A stretch of 64,000 nucleotides of DNA from Oscillospiraceae bacterium (GTDB lineage Bacteria > Bacillota > Clostridia > Oscillospirales > Oscillospiraceae), in contig CACYOR010000002.1 of NCBI GenBank assembly GCA_902775985.1, positions 21,139 through 85,138 of the forward strand. The letters are read 5' to 3'. Position 1 is the stretch's first letter. The number at the start of each line of letters is the position of its first letter. Under the pieces are notes generated by a model. That model worked only from the letters and a program-made list of their open reading frames with translations. It was not told the origin of the DNA and made no database searches. Positions 5,662-55,736 of the stretch are shown here, piece by piece. A program made the translations under genes and the position numbers.

Positions 5662-6275
5662 TTAAAAACATTGTTTTCGACATGGGCCGCGTCCTCATCG
5701 CCTGGGATCCGCCCCGTCTGATCGCCCGCCTCGGATACAGCGGCGAGGACGCCGACCGTCTTCTCCGGGAGGTGTTCAGCTGTGCCGAATGGCAGGGCCT
5801 CGACCGAGGACGTTTGAGCCCGGAGGAAGCCCTGGCGACCATGCTGCCCCGTCTCCCCTCCCATCTGCATGAGGCCGCAGAGCATTTCGTCCGCGCCTGG
5901 TGGGTAGAGGATCTCTGGCCCATCGAGGGCATGGCGGAGCTCGTCCGGGAGGTCAAGGCTCTGGGCTACGGCGTCTACCTCTGCTCCAATGCTACCAGCT
6001 GTCTCCATCAATACTTTGATCGGATTCCCGGCTCGGAGTGTTTTGACGGCAAGATCGTCTCCGCTGACTGGAAGATGCTCAAGCCCCAGCGGGAGATCTA
6101 TGACACGCTCTTCCGGGAATACAGTCTTGATCCCGCCGAGTGCTTTTTCATTGACGACAACCCCGCCAATGTGGAAGCGGGCATGATGCTTGGCATGGAC
6201 GGTGCCGTTTTCTTCCGGGATATGACCCGTCTCCGCGCCGAGCTAATCGCCGCCGGTATCCCGGTCCATCCCTGA
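5658..6275 (+). CDS. HAD-superfamily hydrolase (subfamily IA)
   Basis: 205 aa; motif I VFDMGRVLI, later SN..., FIDDNPANV motif; ATGA overlap with permease gene. Confidence 0.8.
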   Translation: MIKNIVFDMGRVLIAWDPPRLIARLGYSGEDADRLLREVFSCAEWQGLDRGRLSPEEALATMLPRLPSHLHEAAEHFVRAWWVEDLWPIEGMAELVREVKALGYGVYLCSNATSCLHQYFDRIPGSECFDGKIVSADWKMLKPQREIYDTLFREYSLDPAECFFIDDNPANVEAGMMLGMDGAVFFRDMTRLRAELIAAGIPVHP

Positions 6276-6283
6276 TTTTAAAG

Positions 6284-6320
6284 GCTGCGCGTATCGTTTT
6301 GATACGCGCAGCTTTTCTTG
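6284..6320 (+). terminator. intrinsic terminator after HAD gene
   Basis: GCTGCGCGTATC/GATACGCGCAGC 12-bp stem followed by TTTTCTTGTTT. Confidence 0.85.
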
Positions 6321-6336
6321 TTTGGGCAAAGCAGGC

Positions 6337-6416
6337 AAATTGTATTCTATATATTGTTGACAAATTCCGCCGGCACGGCTATAATTCTTTTTGTACAGAA
6401 AGCACGGAATGCTTTC
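6337..6416 (+). promoter_or_regulatory. promoter/operator/leader module of ABC operon 2 (TTGACA 6357-6362, 17 bp, TATAAT 6380-6385)
   Basis: 27/28 identical to 1211-1238 and 16/16 identical to 1267-1282 at the same distance (7 nt) from the -10 box; hairpin GAAAGCA/TGCTTTC 6398-6416. Confidence 0.7.
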
Positions 6417-6442
6417 CATTTGTGGTTGAGGAAAACTTCATA

Positions 6443-6487
6443 ACAAGAAGGGCGTACGCCCTTCTTGTCTTACAGCGCAGCTGTAAG
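6443..6487 (+). promoter_or_regulatory. two abutting hairpins in the 5' leader of ABC operon 2
   Basis: ACAAGAAGGGCG/CGCCCTTCTTGT (6443-6468) directly followed by CTTACAGC/GCTGTAAG (6469-6487), about 70 nt before the start codon. Confidence 0.5.
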
Positions 6488-6554
6488 ACGCGCGCGATTC
6501 GGTGATTCGCAGTTCGGCTGCACACACATAAAATAAAAACAGGAGGAAAAGAAC

Positions 6555-7652
6555 ATGAAGAAGACATTAGCACTGCTGTTGGCTCTGATCATGGTCCTGG
6601 CTCTGGCCGCTCCCACGGCCTTTGCCGACGACATGGAGGATCTTGTCGCTGCCGCCAAAGAAGAAGGCGAGCTGGTCGTCTACGGCTCCTGCGAGGAGGA
6701 GTACCTCGCCGCCGCCTGCCAGAACTTCGAAAAGCTCTACGGCATCAAGGTCAGCTATCAGCGCCTCTCCACCGGTGAGGTTCCCGCCAAGATCGAAGAG
6801 GAGAACGGCAATCCCTCCGCTGACGTCTGGTTTGGCGGCACCAACAACCCCTACGACGGTCTGGCCGCGAAAGGCTTCCTGGACAATTCCTATGTCCCCA
6901 TCAATGCGAGCCACCTCTCCAAGGATCTGTATAAGGATCCCGACGGATACTGGTACGGCATCTATACCGGTCTGCTGGGCTTCATGGTGAACACCGATGA
7001 GCTTGACCGCATGGGCCTCGAGGCTCCCCAGACCTGGGACGACCTGCTCAAGCCCGAGTACAAGGGCCTGATCTGGCTGTCCAACTACAAGACCGCCGGC
7101 ACACCGAAACTGGTCGCCAACCTCATGATCCAGCTGAAGGGTCATGACGAAGGCATCCAGTATCTGGTAGACCTGGATAAGAACGTCGAAGTGTACACCA
7201 AGTCCGGCTCCGGCCCGTCCAAGAACGTGGGCACCGGCGAGTGCGTGATCGGCATCGGCTTCCTGCATGACGGCATCACCCAGATTATCGACAACGGCTA
7301 TGAGAACGTGAAGCTGATCGTCCCGCAGGACGGCACCGCGTGCGAGATCGGCCCCGTGGCCATCTTCAAGGGCGCTGCCCACCTGAACGCCGCCCGTCTG
7401 TTCGTGGAATATGCGCTGAGCCCCGACTGCGTGGAGCTGGCCGCTCAGAACGGCTCCTATCAGTTCCTGGTCATCGACAATGCCGAGCAGCCCGAGGCTG
7501 CCAAGGAGTTCGGCCTGGATCCCAGCCTGGTGTGGGACGGCTATGACTTCGCCGCTGCCAAGGCCGACACCGATCAGAACGTGGAAGACGTCATGGCTGC
7601 CATCGAGAATGCCGGCGCCGACGTGGGCGAGGGTCGTTTCCAGACTTCCTGA
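6555..7652 (+). CDS. ABC transporter substrate-binding protein, Fe(III)-type (AfuA/FbpA-like), secreted
   Basis: 365 aa; signal peptide MKKTLALLLALIMVLALAAPTAFA (near-identical to the signal peptide of 1348-2565); SD AGGAGGA. Confidence 0.85.
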   Translation: MKKTLALLLALIMVLALAAPTAFADDMEDLVAAAKEEGELVVYGSCEEEYLAAACQNFEKLYGIKVSYQRLSTGEVPAKIEEENGNPSADVWFGGTNNPYDGLAAKGFLDNSYVPINASHLSKDLYKDPDGYWYGIYTGLLGFMVNTDELDRMGLEAPQTWDDLLKPEYKGLIWLSNYKTAGTPKLVANLMIQLKGHDEGIQYLVDLDKNVEVYTKSGSGPSKNVGTGECVIGIGFLHDGITQIIDNGYENVKLIVPQDGTACEIGPVAIFKGAAHLNAARLFVEYALSPDCVELAAQNGSYQFLVIDNAEQPEAAKEFGLDPSLVWDGYDFAAAKADTDQNVEDVMAAIENAGADVGEGRFQTS

Positions 7653-27266: not shown

Positions 27267-28151
27267 TCAGTCCTCTTCGCTCTCCTCCGGCAGCGGAGCC
27301 AGAGGATCCGTCACATCCATCTGATCGGGCATCGGCTCTCCGGCCTCGATCAGCGGAAGATACCACATTTCATAATAATAAGGCCGCTGGCTGTCCTGAG
27401 GCCAGATCTCCCCCCAGGGGCGCAGGCAGAGAGTGAAATCAAACTGCTGTCCCTCGCCGCTGTGCCGTCCCTGCAGGGTCAGTTCTCCCTCCGCGCTCGA
27501 GAGCGTCCAGGCGCCCTCCTCCAGCGGCATGAACCAGAAATAACCGTCCTCCGCCACCGCGCTGCCGTCCTCCTGCGGCCGAAGCTGCACCCAGCCCATG
27601 GGCTCCGCGGCGCTTTGATCCTCGTCCCAGAGCAGCAGGCTGACGCTGCCGTCTTCCTCGCTCCGGAAGCGGGCGCAGAGATCGTACCAGGTGTCGGCCA
27701 GCTCTCCCTCGGCGTTCTCGATGCGCCACCAGCCGTACCAGTCGCCGTTCCATTCCGCCTGAAGCAGAGCCTGCTGCTCCCGCTTTGCGGCGCGCTCGGC
27801 CAGATAGCTCTCCGCCCGATCTTCCCGGGCGTAGATCAGGGTGATGTTATCGGGGATCTCCAGGCTCACCAGGCCGTTTTCGATCGTTCCGGCCAGCACC
27901 TGTCCGTTCACGTCCACCCGCAGCTCGCTGCCCTCCCGGGTCCAGCGGATGGCGCCCAGTTCACCCCGGATCGTGAGCTCCCCATAGCCGCCCTGGTCCA
28001 GATTCAAAACGCTGTCCGCCAGGTCCAGCGGTTCCTCCCCGCTCCGGACCTCCACGCAGTGATAGAGTCCCGCGTTTTCATCCTTCTCTCCGCAGCCGCA
28101 GAGAGCCAGCGTCATCAGCACTATCAGAAAAAGCAAGCAAAGCCGCTTCAT
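27267..28151 (-). CDS. hypothetical lipoprotein
   Basis: start MKRLCLLFLIVLMTLALCGCGEK (lipobox LCGC); AAAGGAA SD; acidic Trp-rich mature domain, no family recognised. Confidence 0.6.
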   Translation of the reverse strand: MKRLCLLFLIVLMTLALCGCGEKDENAGLYHCVEVRSGEEPLDLADSVLNLDQGGYGELTIRGELGAIRWTREGSELRVDVNGQVLAGTIENGLVSLEIPDNITLIYAREDRAESYLAERAAKREQQALLQAEWNGDWYGWWRIENAEGELADTWYDLCARFRSEEDGSVSLLLWDEDQSAAEPMGWVQLRPQEDGSAVAEDGYFWFMPLEEGAWTLSSAEGELTLQGRHSGEGQQFDFTLCLRPWGEIWPQDSQRPYYYEMWYLPLIEAGEPMPDQMDVTDPLAPLPEESEED

Positions 28152-28184
28152 GCATCCGTTCCTTTCGCATTTTGATCTGACATT

Positions 28185-28213
28185 ACTATAAAATACAAGC
28201 GCCAAAAATGCAA
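28185..28213 (-). promoter_or_regulatory. promoter of lipoprotein/zinc-ribbon/TPM operon (TTGCAT, 17 bp, TATAGT)
   Basis: hexamers read on minus strand, about 35 nt upstream of the start codon. Confidence 0.55.
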
Positions 28214-28256
28214 GCCGGGATTTGATCTGTTCCTGAAGGGCGCTTTTGGGGTAATA

Positions 28257-28386
28257 GATGATGGGAGTCGCTTGCATCCGCTTTCCGCACGCGAAAAGCG
28301 GATAAATGGATTCGCCAGTTTGTGAACTGGCTCATGCACACGCCACCGGCGTGTGCGGACATGATTCGACTCCCTTCCCTTTTCCA
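28257..28386. repeat. tRNA-linked structured element, copy G (closing helix from tRNA-Gly T-arm, three internal hairpins)
   Basis: 28257-28270 is an exact 14-nt copy of tRNA-Gly positions 28430-28443; GGGAGTCG 28263-28270 pairs with CGACTCCC 28367-28374; hairpins 28276-28303, 28314-28331, 28336-28356; homologous to 55367-55505. Confidence 0.7.
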
Positions 28387-28391
28387 AACAA

Positions 28392-28420
28392 AAAGACCGC
28401 CCCACCGGGCGGTCTTTTCG
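28392..28420. terminator. bidirectional terminator after tRNA-Gly
   Basis: AAAAGACCGCCC/GGGCGGTCTTTT stem flanked by A/T tracts on both sides. Confidence 0.85.
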
Positions 28421-28422
28421 TT

Positions 28423-28496
28423 TGGAGCGGATGATGGGAGTCGAACCCACCTTATCGGCTTGGGAAGCCGGAGTTCTACCGATGAACTACATCCGC
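28423..28496 (-). tRNA. tRNA-Gly (anticodon CCC), CCA encoded
   Basis: manual cloverleaf: GCGGATG acceptor, GTTC/GAAC D-stem, anticodon loop TTCCCAA, GTGGG-TTCGACT-CCCAT T-arm, CATCCGC-T-CCA. Confidence 0.9.
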
Positions 28497-28507
28497 GTGT
28501 GGATGAT

Positions 28508-28536
28508 ACTATACCACAGCTTTCCGGAAAATTCAA
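28508..28536 (-). promoter_or_regulatory. tRNA-Gly promoter (TTGAAT, 17 bp, TGgTATAGT)
   Basis: hexamers on minus strand ending about 11 nt before the mature 5' end. Confidence 0.65.
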
Positions 28537-28666
28537 GAGCGGAACCGGCATTTTTTCCGCCCGGCTTTGACAGGCTTTTTTGTCCTGCTGCGCTATGCTC
28601 ATAAAGCCGGGCACGGGTTGATGGAGGGCGGCTGCGCGCGATCCGCCCTCCGGATGCCTGCCGCGA

Positions 28667-28695
28667 TTGACAAAGGGACGCCGCCGGATTAAGAT
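28667..28695 (+). promoter_or_regulatory. candidate promoter for thiamine diphosphokinase gene (TTGACA, 17 bp, TAAGAT)
   Basis: hexamer spacing. Confidence 0.45.
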
Positions 28696-55257: not shown

Positions 55258-55335
55258 CTGGTCAGAGTGGGGAGACTTGTTTGCCTGTTTCGCTTGTGGG
55301 AGACGCGAAACGTAACAAACGCCCCATAATCTACA
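55258..55335. repeat. tRNA-linked structured element, decayed tandem copy P' (carries 20 nt of tRNA-Pro 3' end incl. CCA, 1 mismatch)
   Basis: TGGTCAGAGTGGGGAGACTT vs tRNA TGGTCGGAGTGGGGAGACTT; followed by GTTTGC + hairpin TGTTTCGC/GCGAAACG as in copy P, then only the 5' half of hairpin C (AACGCCCCA). Confidence 0.7.
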
Positions 55336-55366: not shown

Positions 55367-55505
55367 CGTCGGAGTGGGGAGACTTGTTTGCATGTTTCGC
55401 TTGCGGGAGACGCGAAACATCATAGAATCGGCCAGTTTTTGAACTGGCCGATGAACGCCCCACCGGGGCGTTCGATTTTGATTCAAGTCTCCCCCTCTAA
55501 TACCA
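55367..55505. repeat. tRNA-linked structured element, copy P (closing helix from tRNA-Pro T-arm, three internal hairpins)
   Basis: GTCGGAGTGGGGAGACTT 55368-55385 = tRNA-Pro 55545-55562; GGGGAGACTTG 55376-55386 pairs with CAAGTCTCCCC 55484-55494; hairpins 55392-55420, 55427-55452, 55453-55473; collinear homology to 28257-28386. Confidence 0.72.
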
Positions 55506-55541
55506 AAAAGACAGGAGGCTCTTTTGAGCCTCCTGTCTTTT
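55505..55541. terminator. bidirectional terminator after tRNA-Pro
   Basis: AAAAAGACAGGAGGCTC/GAGCCTCCTGTCTTTTT. Confidence 0.88.
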
Positions 55542-55617
55542 TGGTCGGAGTGGGGAGACTTGAACTCCCGGCCTCTTGGTCCCGAACCAAGCGCGCTACC
55601 AGCTGCGCTACACCCCG
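55542..55617 (-). tRNA. tRNA-Pro (anticodon CGG), CCA encoded
   Basis: manual cloverleaf: CGGGGTG acceptor, GCGC/GCGC D-stem, CTTGG-TTCGGGA-CCAAG anticodon arm, GGGAG-TTCAAGT-CTCCC T-arm, CACTCCG-A-CCA. Confidence 0.9.
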
Positions 55618-55630
55618 AAACAGCTTTTAT

Positions 55631-55659
55631 ATTATAATGACAGCCCATACAATTGTCAA
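55631..55659 (-). promoter_or_regulatory. tRNA-Pro promoter (TTGACA, 17 bp, TATAAT)
   Basis: perfect consensus hexamers on minus strand, -10 ends 13 nt before mature 5' end. Confidence 0.75.
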
Positions 55660-55691
55660 GAGGAAAAATCGAAGATCGCCCTCTGTCCCCC

Positions 55692-55736
55692 AAAAGGAAA
55701 GACGCGGCACAGCATCGGCGTCGCGTCTTTCCTTTT
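55692..55736. terminator. bidirectional terminator after XRE gene
   Basis: AAAAGGAAAGACGCG/CGCGTCTTTCCTTTT 15-bp stem. Confidence 0.8.

Follow-up and report, generated by a model that had tools for sequence, protein, structure and literature searches.

A structured miniature element at tRNA ends in gut Oscillospiraceae, from a family undescribed in the resources searched

Introduction

Repetitive extragenic palindromic sequences (REP) and bacterial interspersed mosaic elements (BIME) are dispersed extragenic palindromes mobilized by RAYT, an IS200-like transposase. Another described system, the ssrA islands of Dehalococcoides, integrates into tRNA or tmRNA genes at the T-loop (‘sublocation II’) and forms tandem arrays downstream of the gene (PMC3146451). 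These islands are 10-30 kb long, encode their own serine-recombinase module (DsiB/DsiA) and use a single target gene (PMC3146451). The subject of this report is a short structured element found behind tRNA-Gly(ccc), and a second time behind tRNA-Pro(cgg), in a 64-kb stretch of contig CACYOR010000002.1 from an Oscillospiraceae bacterium; the whole of this stretch is called the window. It is classed here as a miniature attachment site (att)-bearing element specific to tRNA ends, and the tRNA-anchored copies form a large undescribed repeat family in gut Oscillospiraceae. Its distribution at tRNA ends only argues against membership in the REP/BIME group, and no description of the family was found in the literature searched.

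The element and its family

At the tRNA-Gly locus, the element is separated from the tRNA gene by a symmetric terminator hairpin (T), and both of its ends have the same source, namely the last 22-23 nt of tRNA-Gly, from the T-loop to CCA (Table 1). The outer end is a direct repeat (DR), in which a repeat search recovered the exact 14-nt copy GATGATGGGAGTCG reported in the original prediction for this locus (28257-28270 identical to 28430-28443). The inner end (X, TTCGACTCCCTTC) is the inverted copy of tRNA-Gly that had been described with it; it is also complementary to the tRNA at 28433-28445 and, as TTCGACTCCC(TTC) over 28365-28377, pairs with 28260-28270 in the closing helix, P1. The three hairpins enclosed by these ends (hp1, hp2, given by the core of an inverted repeat, and hp3) lie exactly where they had been placed. 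The four-way junction proposed for them was obtained when either strand was folded alone, at -34.5 kcal/mol for the plus strand (z -5.7) and -36.2 kcal/mol for the minus strand (z -6.2). T is itself the centre of a larger palindrome formed by the tRNA 3′ end, T and X. Of the symmetric terminator in the original prediction, the palindrome is present at 28384-28425, with 20-nt arms (28383-28402 and 28407-28426) matching at 95% in an inverted-repeat search, whereas a simple terminator scan made no call there because the T-run is interrupted.

The second, collinear copy expected behind tRNA-Pro was recovered with slightly shifted ends, at 55368-55494. Nineteen nucleotides of its DR are identical to 55544-55562, and it folds at -43.1 kcal/mol on each strand (z about -9). 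Beyond it lies a truncated third copy, absent from the original prediction, whose DR covers 21 nt including TGG (= CCA) with one mismatch, and in which hp2 is deleted. The Gly copy is itself a slightly decayed family member, since its X matches in 12 of 13 positions and its DR lacks the last 7 nt of the tRNA, against a family norm of 20-22 nt reaching CCA.

The family was searched with a sequence pattern derived from hp2 plus the loop of hp3 against bacterial genomes sampled at one genome per species. At least 120 stretches matched the pattern, and at least 98 distinct copies were left after filtering, always beside a tRNA 3′ end. The true matches listed all belong to Faecousia or to unclassified Oscillospiraceae and Clostridia genomes from animal and human gut metagenomes; matches in Proteobacteria, Actinobacteria and archaea lie inside genes and were rejected as chance hits. 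In about 75 loci, the tRNA gene is found 73-95 nt past the hp3 loop and is always convergent with the element. At least 16 tRNA identities are represented (Arg, Met, Pro, Lys, Leu, Ser, Gly, Gln, Val, Thr, Cys, Ala, Glu, His, Tyr and Asp), and the match between the closing helix and the adjacent tRNA was borne out across the family. A chance origin of the tRNA match, considered improbable from the Gly copy, is excluded by these family-level data. In operons of several tRNAs, the element is borne by the last tRNA only, with the exception of a short form, devoid of a terminator, located between tRNA-Thr and tRNA-Tyr. Among 17 other terminal tRNAs in the fetched loci, five carry a perfect repeat and five more a copy of X, in these cases from other hairpin variants.

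A covariance model (R1) built from 39 family members found only the two known copies in the window and, weakly, the third remnant (10.7 bits, E = 0.8). That the element corresponds to no described RNA family agrees with three Rfam scans. The whole window at the gathering threshold gave just the two tRNAs, the region 28150-28520 at E ≤ 10 gave Leu_leader as best non-tRNA match (23.7 bits against a 50-bit threshold), and the element was unmatched in eight well-formed family members at E ≤ 0.5. A tRNA-like gene was also rejected, as ARAGORN detected no tRNA or tmRNA within the Gly element and hp2 lacks 7-nt anticodon or T-loop geometry. A blastn search of phage and plasmid collections returned no match to the element, and the only two true matches in viral contigs are both host flanks of prophages. 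Units from distant genomes can be 88-95% identical; this was not relied on as evidence of recent horizontal transfer, because the loops and the tRNA-derived parts are themselves constrained.

Units are 130-170 bp long, non-coding and contain two or three perfect hairpins. In the tRNA sense, they read tRNA (ending in positions 56-76) - T - X - hp3′ - hp2′ - (hp1′) - AATGCAAA - positions 56-76, with occasional cargo located after the terminator and before X. At the unit boundary, AATGCAAA is followed directly by CGAGTCC, the outer arms being tRNA sequence. In 31 of 36 loci, anchored at CCA, the DR extends from T-loop position 55/56 exactly to CCA over 20-22 nt, and identity ceases within 0-8 nt beyond CCA likewise in 31 of 36; in the five loci where it does not, the terminator is duplicated too, as expected for tandem units. 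In 82 loci, X is an inverted copy of the local tRNA from position 54 to about 63-69. It measures 9-16 nt, occasionally 23 nt including CCA, and can pair in two ways, either with the 3′ part of the tRNA across the terminator or with the distal repeat across the hairpins. The near-invariant parts are hp2 (CCAGTTTTTGAACTGG) and the hp3 loop CCACCGG, whereas the stems of hp1 and hp3 and the outer part of hp2 are variable. The hp2 loop TTTG and the hp1 loop CTTGCGGGAGAC are conserved as well, together with GTAG at the foot of the imperfect hp2 stem. Further variants show the same architecture with other hairpins.

RNA or DNA

For the closing helix, hp2 and hp3, pairing was analysed in an alignment of 52 sequences, which provides 1612 pair cells. 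Standard pairs occupy 96.3% of these cells, a figure biased towards pairing in the closing helix, where the arms were picked as best-pairing stretches, and free of this selection in hp2 and hp3. Two-sided changes were observed in 327 cells, compared with 92.6 ± 7.9 in shuffles, and 22 of the 31 pairs covary. In hp3, which is 99% paired, eight of ten pairs show two-sided change. One-sided changes of the G-U type are nearly absent, at 0-2 per pair. The two strands differ in folding energy by a mean of -1.0 ± 4.6 kcal/mol (one strand is preferred in 54 copies, the opposite one in 43), and wobble-type substitutions in X number 14 on one strand and 12 on the other. The strand had been called undecidable from the Gly copy, in agreement with the lack of any strand signal family-wide. 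Among 98 copies, no sigma-70-like promoter recurs at a conserved place on one strand or the other (any 5-nt bin holds 4 of 98 at most; other promoter types were not covered). No promoter-like site was found in or beside the Gly copy, and the promoter placed at 28185-28213 by the original prediction was not recovered at the tool threshold. The only promoter-like sites at the locus are that of tRNA-Gly (28536-28508, minus strand) and that of the thiamine pyrophosphokinase (TPK) gene (28667-28695, plus strand).

These pairing and strand features appear to fit a DNA-level or both-strand constraint better than a conventional RNA gene. The alternative is a structured RNA co-transcribed in the tRNA sense, by read-through or within an operon. 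Its 3′ end would copy the tRNA from the T-loop to CCA, and X would sequester this copy or pair with the T-arm of the tRNA, so that the RNA could act as a mimic or decoy of the tRNA 3′ end or control precursor processing or folding. The best support comes from the copies between tRNA-Thr and tRNA-Tyr, which lie inside a terminator-less operon and in which X, the hairpins and the 21-nt repeat are conserved in eight species. Conserved loops, covarying stems and four-way junction z-scores of -5.7 to -9 also speak for an RNA, and motifs of single-stranded DNA and of RNA are hard to separate cleanly by sequence analysis (PMC5737381). However, at most loci, the strong symmetric terminator between tRNA and element stands ahead of the element in the tRNA sense. 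Neither strand has a conserved promoter, G-U intermediates are virtually missing from the 1612 pair cells, and neither folding energy nor substitutions favour a strand. In addition, the element is restricted to the last tRNA of an operon, relatives lack it at orthologous tRNAs, its copy number varies within species, and its hairpin modules are interchangeable between variants. An RNA acting in this way is possible but unlikely. The original prediction had leaned towards a convergent RNA gene, a leaning that gains no support from the lack of a conserved promoter, the near absence of G-U intermediates, the terminator that stands between tRNA and element at most loci, and behaviour like that of mobile or recombining DNA.

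The terminator and the hairpins could also be read together as a host cis-element, a bidirectional terminator or insulator cluster guarding highly expressed tRNA genes and their neighbours from read-through. The element is always at the 3′ end of a tRNA transcription unit beside a symmetric terminator, and its hairpins are GC-rich, perfect and able to work on both strands, as such a role would demand. However, no T-runs follow hp2 and hp3, an insulator accounts neither for X nor for the 21 nt copied exactly from the tRNA 3′ end, a plain terminator suffices in related species, and the Thr-Tyr copy is located within an operon, where termination would be harmful. Insulation is the least probable of the explanations weighed here.

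A proposed recombination module at the T-loop

The favoured interpretation, held at a little under even confidence, is a non-autonomous recombination module specific to tRNA 3′ ends, which folds as DNA and is partly decayed in the window. A putative recombinase, encoded elsewhere and acting in trans, would exchange strands in the T-loop at about position 55/56. Upon integration, the tRNA would receive the 3′ end and the terminator borne by the element, while the original 3′ end would be displaced to the far side as the DR; upon excision, the displaced repeat would again become the working 3′ end. Each integration or excision would swap which copy of positions 56-76 serves the tRNA. Such an exchange of 3′ ends would explain why the whole repeat, and nothing past CCA, stays identical to the tRNA while the linkers decay. 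Folding of a single strand, or of an extruded cruciform, would be made possible by X and the hairpins, and the pairing of X with the repeat would rebuild a duplex T-loop/T-stem site beside the multi-hairpin junction. We infer where the crossover lies, that the substrate is folded DNA, and that a recombinase exists and of which type; the anatomy, the exact repeat boundaries, the tRNA-matched ends, the covariation without wobble intermediates, the tandem arrays, the variation in copy number and in presence between species and the lack of a promoter are direct observations.

A repeat boundary at CCA is also found at a bona fide tyrosine-integrase island in the tRNA-Pro of the same species. This locus is polymorphic among strains, and differences set L132, L135, L137, L138 and L139 apart from L133, L134, L136 and the window (55500-55700). 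The island, present in some strains and missing from that of the window, is 5.4 kb long and encodes a 406-aa tyrosine integrase (Phage_int_SAM_5 and Phage_integrase), a DUF6291 protein and small open reading frames (ORFs). Its insertion site is the anticodon loop, and the accompanying direct repeat of 45 nt ends exactly at CCA. The Pro element is not a scar of this island, which uses the anticodon loop and shifts the element aside untouched.

In a wider sense, the copies might be passive, decaying att scars that serve no function today, left by ordinary integrase islands formerly located in the T-loop of the respective tRNA. The tRNA 3′ ends of these genomes are insertion hot spots, used by the tyrosine-integrase island, by serine-recombinase islands and by a transposon-like element with Shedu and HaeIII restriction-modification genes, and both the truncated Gly repeat and the clearly decayed third Pro copy would suit a scar. 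However, a single 100-nt hairpin core is found beside at least 16 different tRNAs, its stems covary and are 96% paired, its conserved blocks stand amid diverged linkers, and most loci have perfect 20-22 nt repeats. Moreover, no integrase-bearing parent with the hairpins was found in about 100 loci, in viral contigs or in phage and plasmid collections. A plain att scar had been the counter-case of the original prediction, and it is not borne out either: the window copies lie among housekeeping genes, the one integrase island seen at tRNA-Pro uses a different site, and blocks of the element are conserved where its linkers have diverged. Scars are considered improbable.

A further origin, one without a dedicated enzyme, would be local replication errors, if template switching at the terminator palindrome copied the tRNA 3′ end in alternating orientation and unequal recombination spread the arrays. 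Direct and inverted copies do alternate, with hairpin spacers between them, and the tRNA/T/X palindrome is long, with arms of up to 23 nt plus the terminator in two loci (L022 and L120). The arms are strictly Watson-Crick, as templated copying gives, and related species are separated by an inversion of the tRNA-Gly segment. However, such a by-product leaves unexplained one homologous core with conserved loops at many tRNAs and species, as well as conserved blocks with diverged linkers. Furthermore, the DR is longer and more perfect than X, hence it was not copied from X. Template switching is accordingly given a very low probability.

Two further candidates were rejected. tRNA-primed or tRNA-templated reverse transcription does not suit the data, as position 55/56 is no known stop of reverse transcriptases, the orientation is unfit for a primer-binding site and no reverse transcriptase is encoded nearby. 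A target duplication of the casposon or transposase type was discarded because the two ends of a unit are not mutual inverted repeats and 21-22 bp exceeds the length of such a duplication.

Gain, loss and retention

Comparison with relatives was made at the orthologous tRNA-Gly locus, next to the TPK gene. In L145 (TPK 85% identical), the full 22-nt DR is kept and T and X are the same as in the window, including the diverged tail of X, but the inner hairpins are different. L145 has one unit; two units of 149 nt stand in tandem in L146, which comes from a separate sample but encodes the identical TPK protein. In L147 (TPK 73% identical), a plain terminator without element is found, and the same holds for L149-L152 (TPK 65-68% identical), in which the tRNA segment is also inverted. 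Relative to window positions 28423-28660, the inverted segment contains tRNA-Gly(ccc), its promoter and an upstream GC-rich hairpin, and the tRNA faces the TPK gene. This hairpin (28623-28651, GGAGGGCGG-N11-CCGCCCTCC), located upstream of the tRNA-Gly promoter, is kept in L145, L147, L149 and L151, the inversion notwithstanding, and has no match in Rfam. The variant of L145 (2053-2200) and L146 (1904-2200) is peculiar in that its X region contains two pieces of the tRNA 3′ end, both in sense orientation and with their order permuted: first TCCGCTCC (positions 67-75), then TTCGACTCCC (positions 54-63); pairing of both with the repeat would give a pseudoknot.

At the tRNA-Pro of L140, where the neighbouring peptidase is 88% identical, the homologous terminator is followed by a degenerate X, with neither hairpins nor repeat. 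Between this X and the M13 peptidase gene, three co-oriented genes (258, 252 and 144 aa; L140 968-2914) replace the hairpins and the repeat. Tandem arrays are found in L088, L002, L105, L109, L118 and L146. In L019 (2376-2570), an Arg-type unit, whose X and degenerate repeat match tRNA-Arg(ccg), lies directly behind tRNA-Ser(gct), and the Ser-type repeat lies 1.9 kb further; this arrangement shows that a unit can be taken into an array belonging to a different tRNA. In eight species compared at the Thr-Tyr locus, every linker is diverged beyond recognition, whereas conservation extends to X, hp3, hp2 and the complete 21-nt repeat. Taken together, the comparisons with relatives show gain, loss, duplication and remodelling of the element, and purifying selection wherever it persists.

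Several observations weigh against the recombination module proposed above. In the window species, both copies are identical and fixed in the 7-8 sampled strains, which speaks for stability. T is near-identical in L145, T and X having been inherited together, and the hairpins of the two species differ over a common T and X; L140 similarly keeps T and a degenerate X without hairpins. The patterns in L145 and L140 fit a model in which T, X and the hairpins move as one unit less well: it seems that T and X pass down with the locus, and that it is the hairpins that are swapped. Conservation inside the co-transcribed Thr-Tyr operon could equally mean a role at the RNA level. Neither a clean filled/empty pair within one species nor a circular form was seen. 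The sequence just inside the repeat (AATGCAAA) is unlike the 5′ strand of the T-stem, which leaves no conventional double-stranded core site. In about 100 loci, no recombinase is encoded in the units or recurs beside them, apart from the large serine recombinases of five loci. In the four of these whose junctions were examined (L059, L081, L094 and L098), the crossover is a different one, 4-9 nt from CCA and not in the T-loop. Finally, the cargo examined between units consists of other mobile elements, namely remnants of serine-recombinase islands and the transposon-like element.

It is conceivable, but doubtful, that gut Oscillospiraceae carry a new site-specific recombination system, integron-like or guide-like, in which a small module of folded DNA rebuilds the T-loop/T-stem duplex by means of its inverted tRNA-derived arm, is thereby ‘addressed’ to the local tRNA by base complementarity, and one trans-acting recombinase could serve every tRNA gene. 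If the element is a recombination site, it would show how a tiny non-coding element can fill a majority of the sampled tRNA operon ends in this lineage when its two ends are both copies of the target. It would then point to a recombinase of relaxed or structure-guided specificity, of interest for genome engineering, and would help to explain why the tRNA 3′ flanks of uncultured gut bacteria are integration hot spots for defence islands. If it acts as RNA, it would represent a new class of tRNA 3′-end mimic. Either way, such partial tRNA copies can mislead tRNA and att-site callers, which is a problem for annotation, and the family is a good marker for Faecousia-like genomes.

Neighbouring genes and other mobile elements

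Housekeeping genes fill the 64-kb window, and no recombinase, transposase or reverse transcriptase was found in it. Among 552 neighbouring ORFs of the family, BLAST clustering (as opposed to a hidden Markov model scan of all ORFs) identified the large serine recombinase, in five loci, as the only recurrent protein family, and no recurring tyrosine recombinase. In the four loci examined, genes for large serine recombinases (Resolvase, Recombinase and Zn_ribbon_recom domains) directly adjoin the units (Table 1). In three of the four, the ORF continues through the terminator and stops inside X (...GLEPT*, ...GFEPI*, ...RIEPI*). These enzymes were rejected as the direct cause of the element because the junction retains the last 4-9 nt of the tRNA in all four loci, their islands occupying the CCA/terminator junction; they may be relatives of the enzyme of the element.

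The transposon-like element was observed in L002 (415-5035), in L019 (2560-4110) and to the right of the unit in L035. It has 20-bp terminal inverted repeats (GGCGCATATTTTGATAGAAA) and subterminal iterons that differ by end (five copies of GGGGGGTGCA and five of TAGTCCGTCGAA), and it inserts between the terminator of a unit and the next tRNA-end copy. In L002, its cargo comprises the gene for Shedu SduA, a HaeIII endonuclease and two ORFs tentatively likened to C5-methyltransferases. Capture of cassettes in the manner of integrons was rejected since the cargo examined has its own ends, with ATAACGG/TTATAGGA-type junctions and 20-bp terminal inverted repeats with iterons, and hence belongs to other elements. 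In L131, about 120 nt to the left of the unit in element orientation, three tandem copies of GATGGTGACCCGCTGG + GTCTTCGCTTACGC were found, in each of which the last 14 nt of the tRNA precede an unchanging 14-mer; their appearance is that of remnants of a different att type stacked one on the other. Mobile elements of several kinds integrate frequently at the tRNA 3′ ends of this lineage.

Table 1. Positions of the elements, their parts and associated genes (window coordinates unless a locus is named)
Feature	Position	Strand	Basis or remark
tRNA-Gly(ccc), anchor	28423-28496	-	ARAGORN; Rfam tRNA, 61.1 bits
T at tRNA-Gly, symmetric terminator hairpin between tRNA and X	28384-28425	.	inverted-repeat search
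X, inverted copy of tRNA-Gly positions 54-66, 3′ arm of P1	28365-28377	+	12/13 match
hp3, 9-bp perfect stem, conserved loop context CCACCGG	28336-28356	.	inverted repeat; family covariation
hp2, GCCAGTT-TGTG-AACTGGC, best-conserved block of the family (CCAGTTnnTGAACTGG)	28314-28331	.	invariant alignment columns
hp1, variable hairpin, missing from short-form family members	28276-28303	.	inverted repeat; family alignment
DR, antisense copy of tRNA-Gly positions 56-69, 5′ arm of P1	28257-28270	+	direct-repeat search
tRNA-Pro(cgg), anchor of the second copy	55542-55617	-	ARAGORN; Rfam tRNA
Symmetric terminator hairpin at tRNA-Pro	55503-55544	.	inverted repeats; homologous terminator in sister-species locus L140
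Second full element	55368-55494	+	repeats, folding; covariance model R1, 93.6 bits
DR of the Pro element	55368-55386		
hp1 of the Pro element	55392-55420		
hp2 of the Pro element	55427-55452		
hp3 of the Pro element	55453-55473		
X of the Pro element	55482-55494		
Third, decayed unit	55259-55312	+	DR 55259-55279 and hp1 55285-55312 only
Serine recombinase gene, L059	about 5818-7356		element-oriented
Serine recombinase gene, L081	3571-5055		element-oriented
Serine recombinase gene, L094	497-2071		element-oriented
Serine recombinase gene, L098	1121-2806		element-oriented

Comparison with known systems

Similar to REP/BIME and to MITEs (miniature transposable elements with inverted repeats), the element is short, palindromic and non-coding, and lies outside genes in many copies. 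Further likenesses to these groups are GTAG at the base of hp2 and, taken as terminal inverted repeats, X and the direct repeat. However, REP and MITE copies are scattered in intergenic regions and have fixed ends, whereas the element is confined to tRNA 3′ ends and carries copies of the target at its own ends. MITE target duplications are also short, compared with the 20-22 nt of the repeat.

The cis-mobilizable elements (CIMEs) resemble it by their att direct repeats at the 3′ end of a host gene, by the lack of recombination genes and by the possibility of a tandem arrangement with other elements. CIMEs are, however, kilobase-sized deletion derivatives of an identifiable integrative and conjugative or integrative and mobilizable element, while no autonomous parent of the present element was found in about 100 loci, viral contigs, phages and plasmids. 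The conserved part of the element is, moreover, a compact structured core shared across many target specificities.

The ssrA islands of Dehalococcoides share with it a direct repeat from the T-loop to the 3′ end, the formation of arrays, a short conserved motif just inside the repeats and a tRNA regenerated by the incoming element. Unlike these islands, the element is 130-170 bp long and gene-free, serves at least 16 tRNAs with matched ends and possesses an inverted tRNA-derived arm and a multi-hairpin core.

With the attC sites of integrons, the element shares complementary, covarying arms with little sequence conservation and the presence of a site at each unit boundary, with an inverse at the site start. 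The likeness extends to the arrays of units and, by analogy, to the proposed folding of single-stranded DNA and to a crossover that would lie at the inner end of the outer box. The element differs from attC in that it has no RYYYAAC/GTTRRRY boxes, its core being the local tRNA 3′ end, and in that no IntI (by BLAST clustering of the neighbouring ORFs) or attI accompanies the arrays, whose head is always a tRNA gene. Its fold is a three- or four-way junction instead of the bulged hairpin of attC, and cargo between units is rare. Finally, the folded attP of the CTX phage may be likened, again by analogy, to the duplex site that the element is proposed to rebuild beside its junction.

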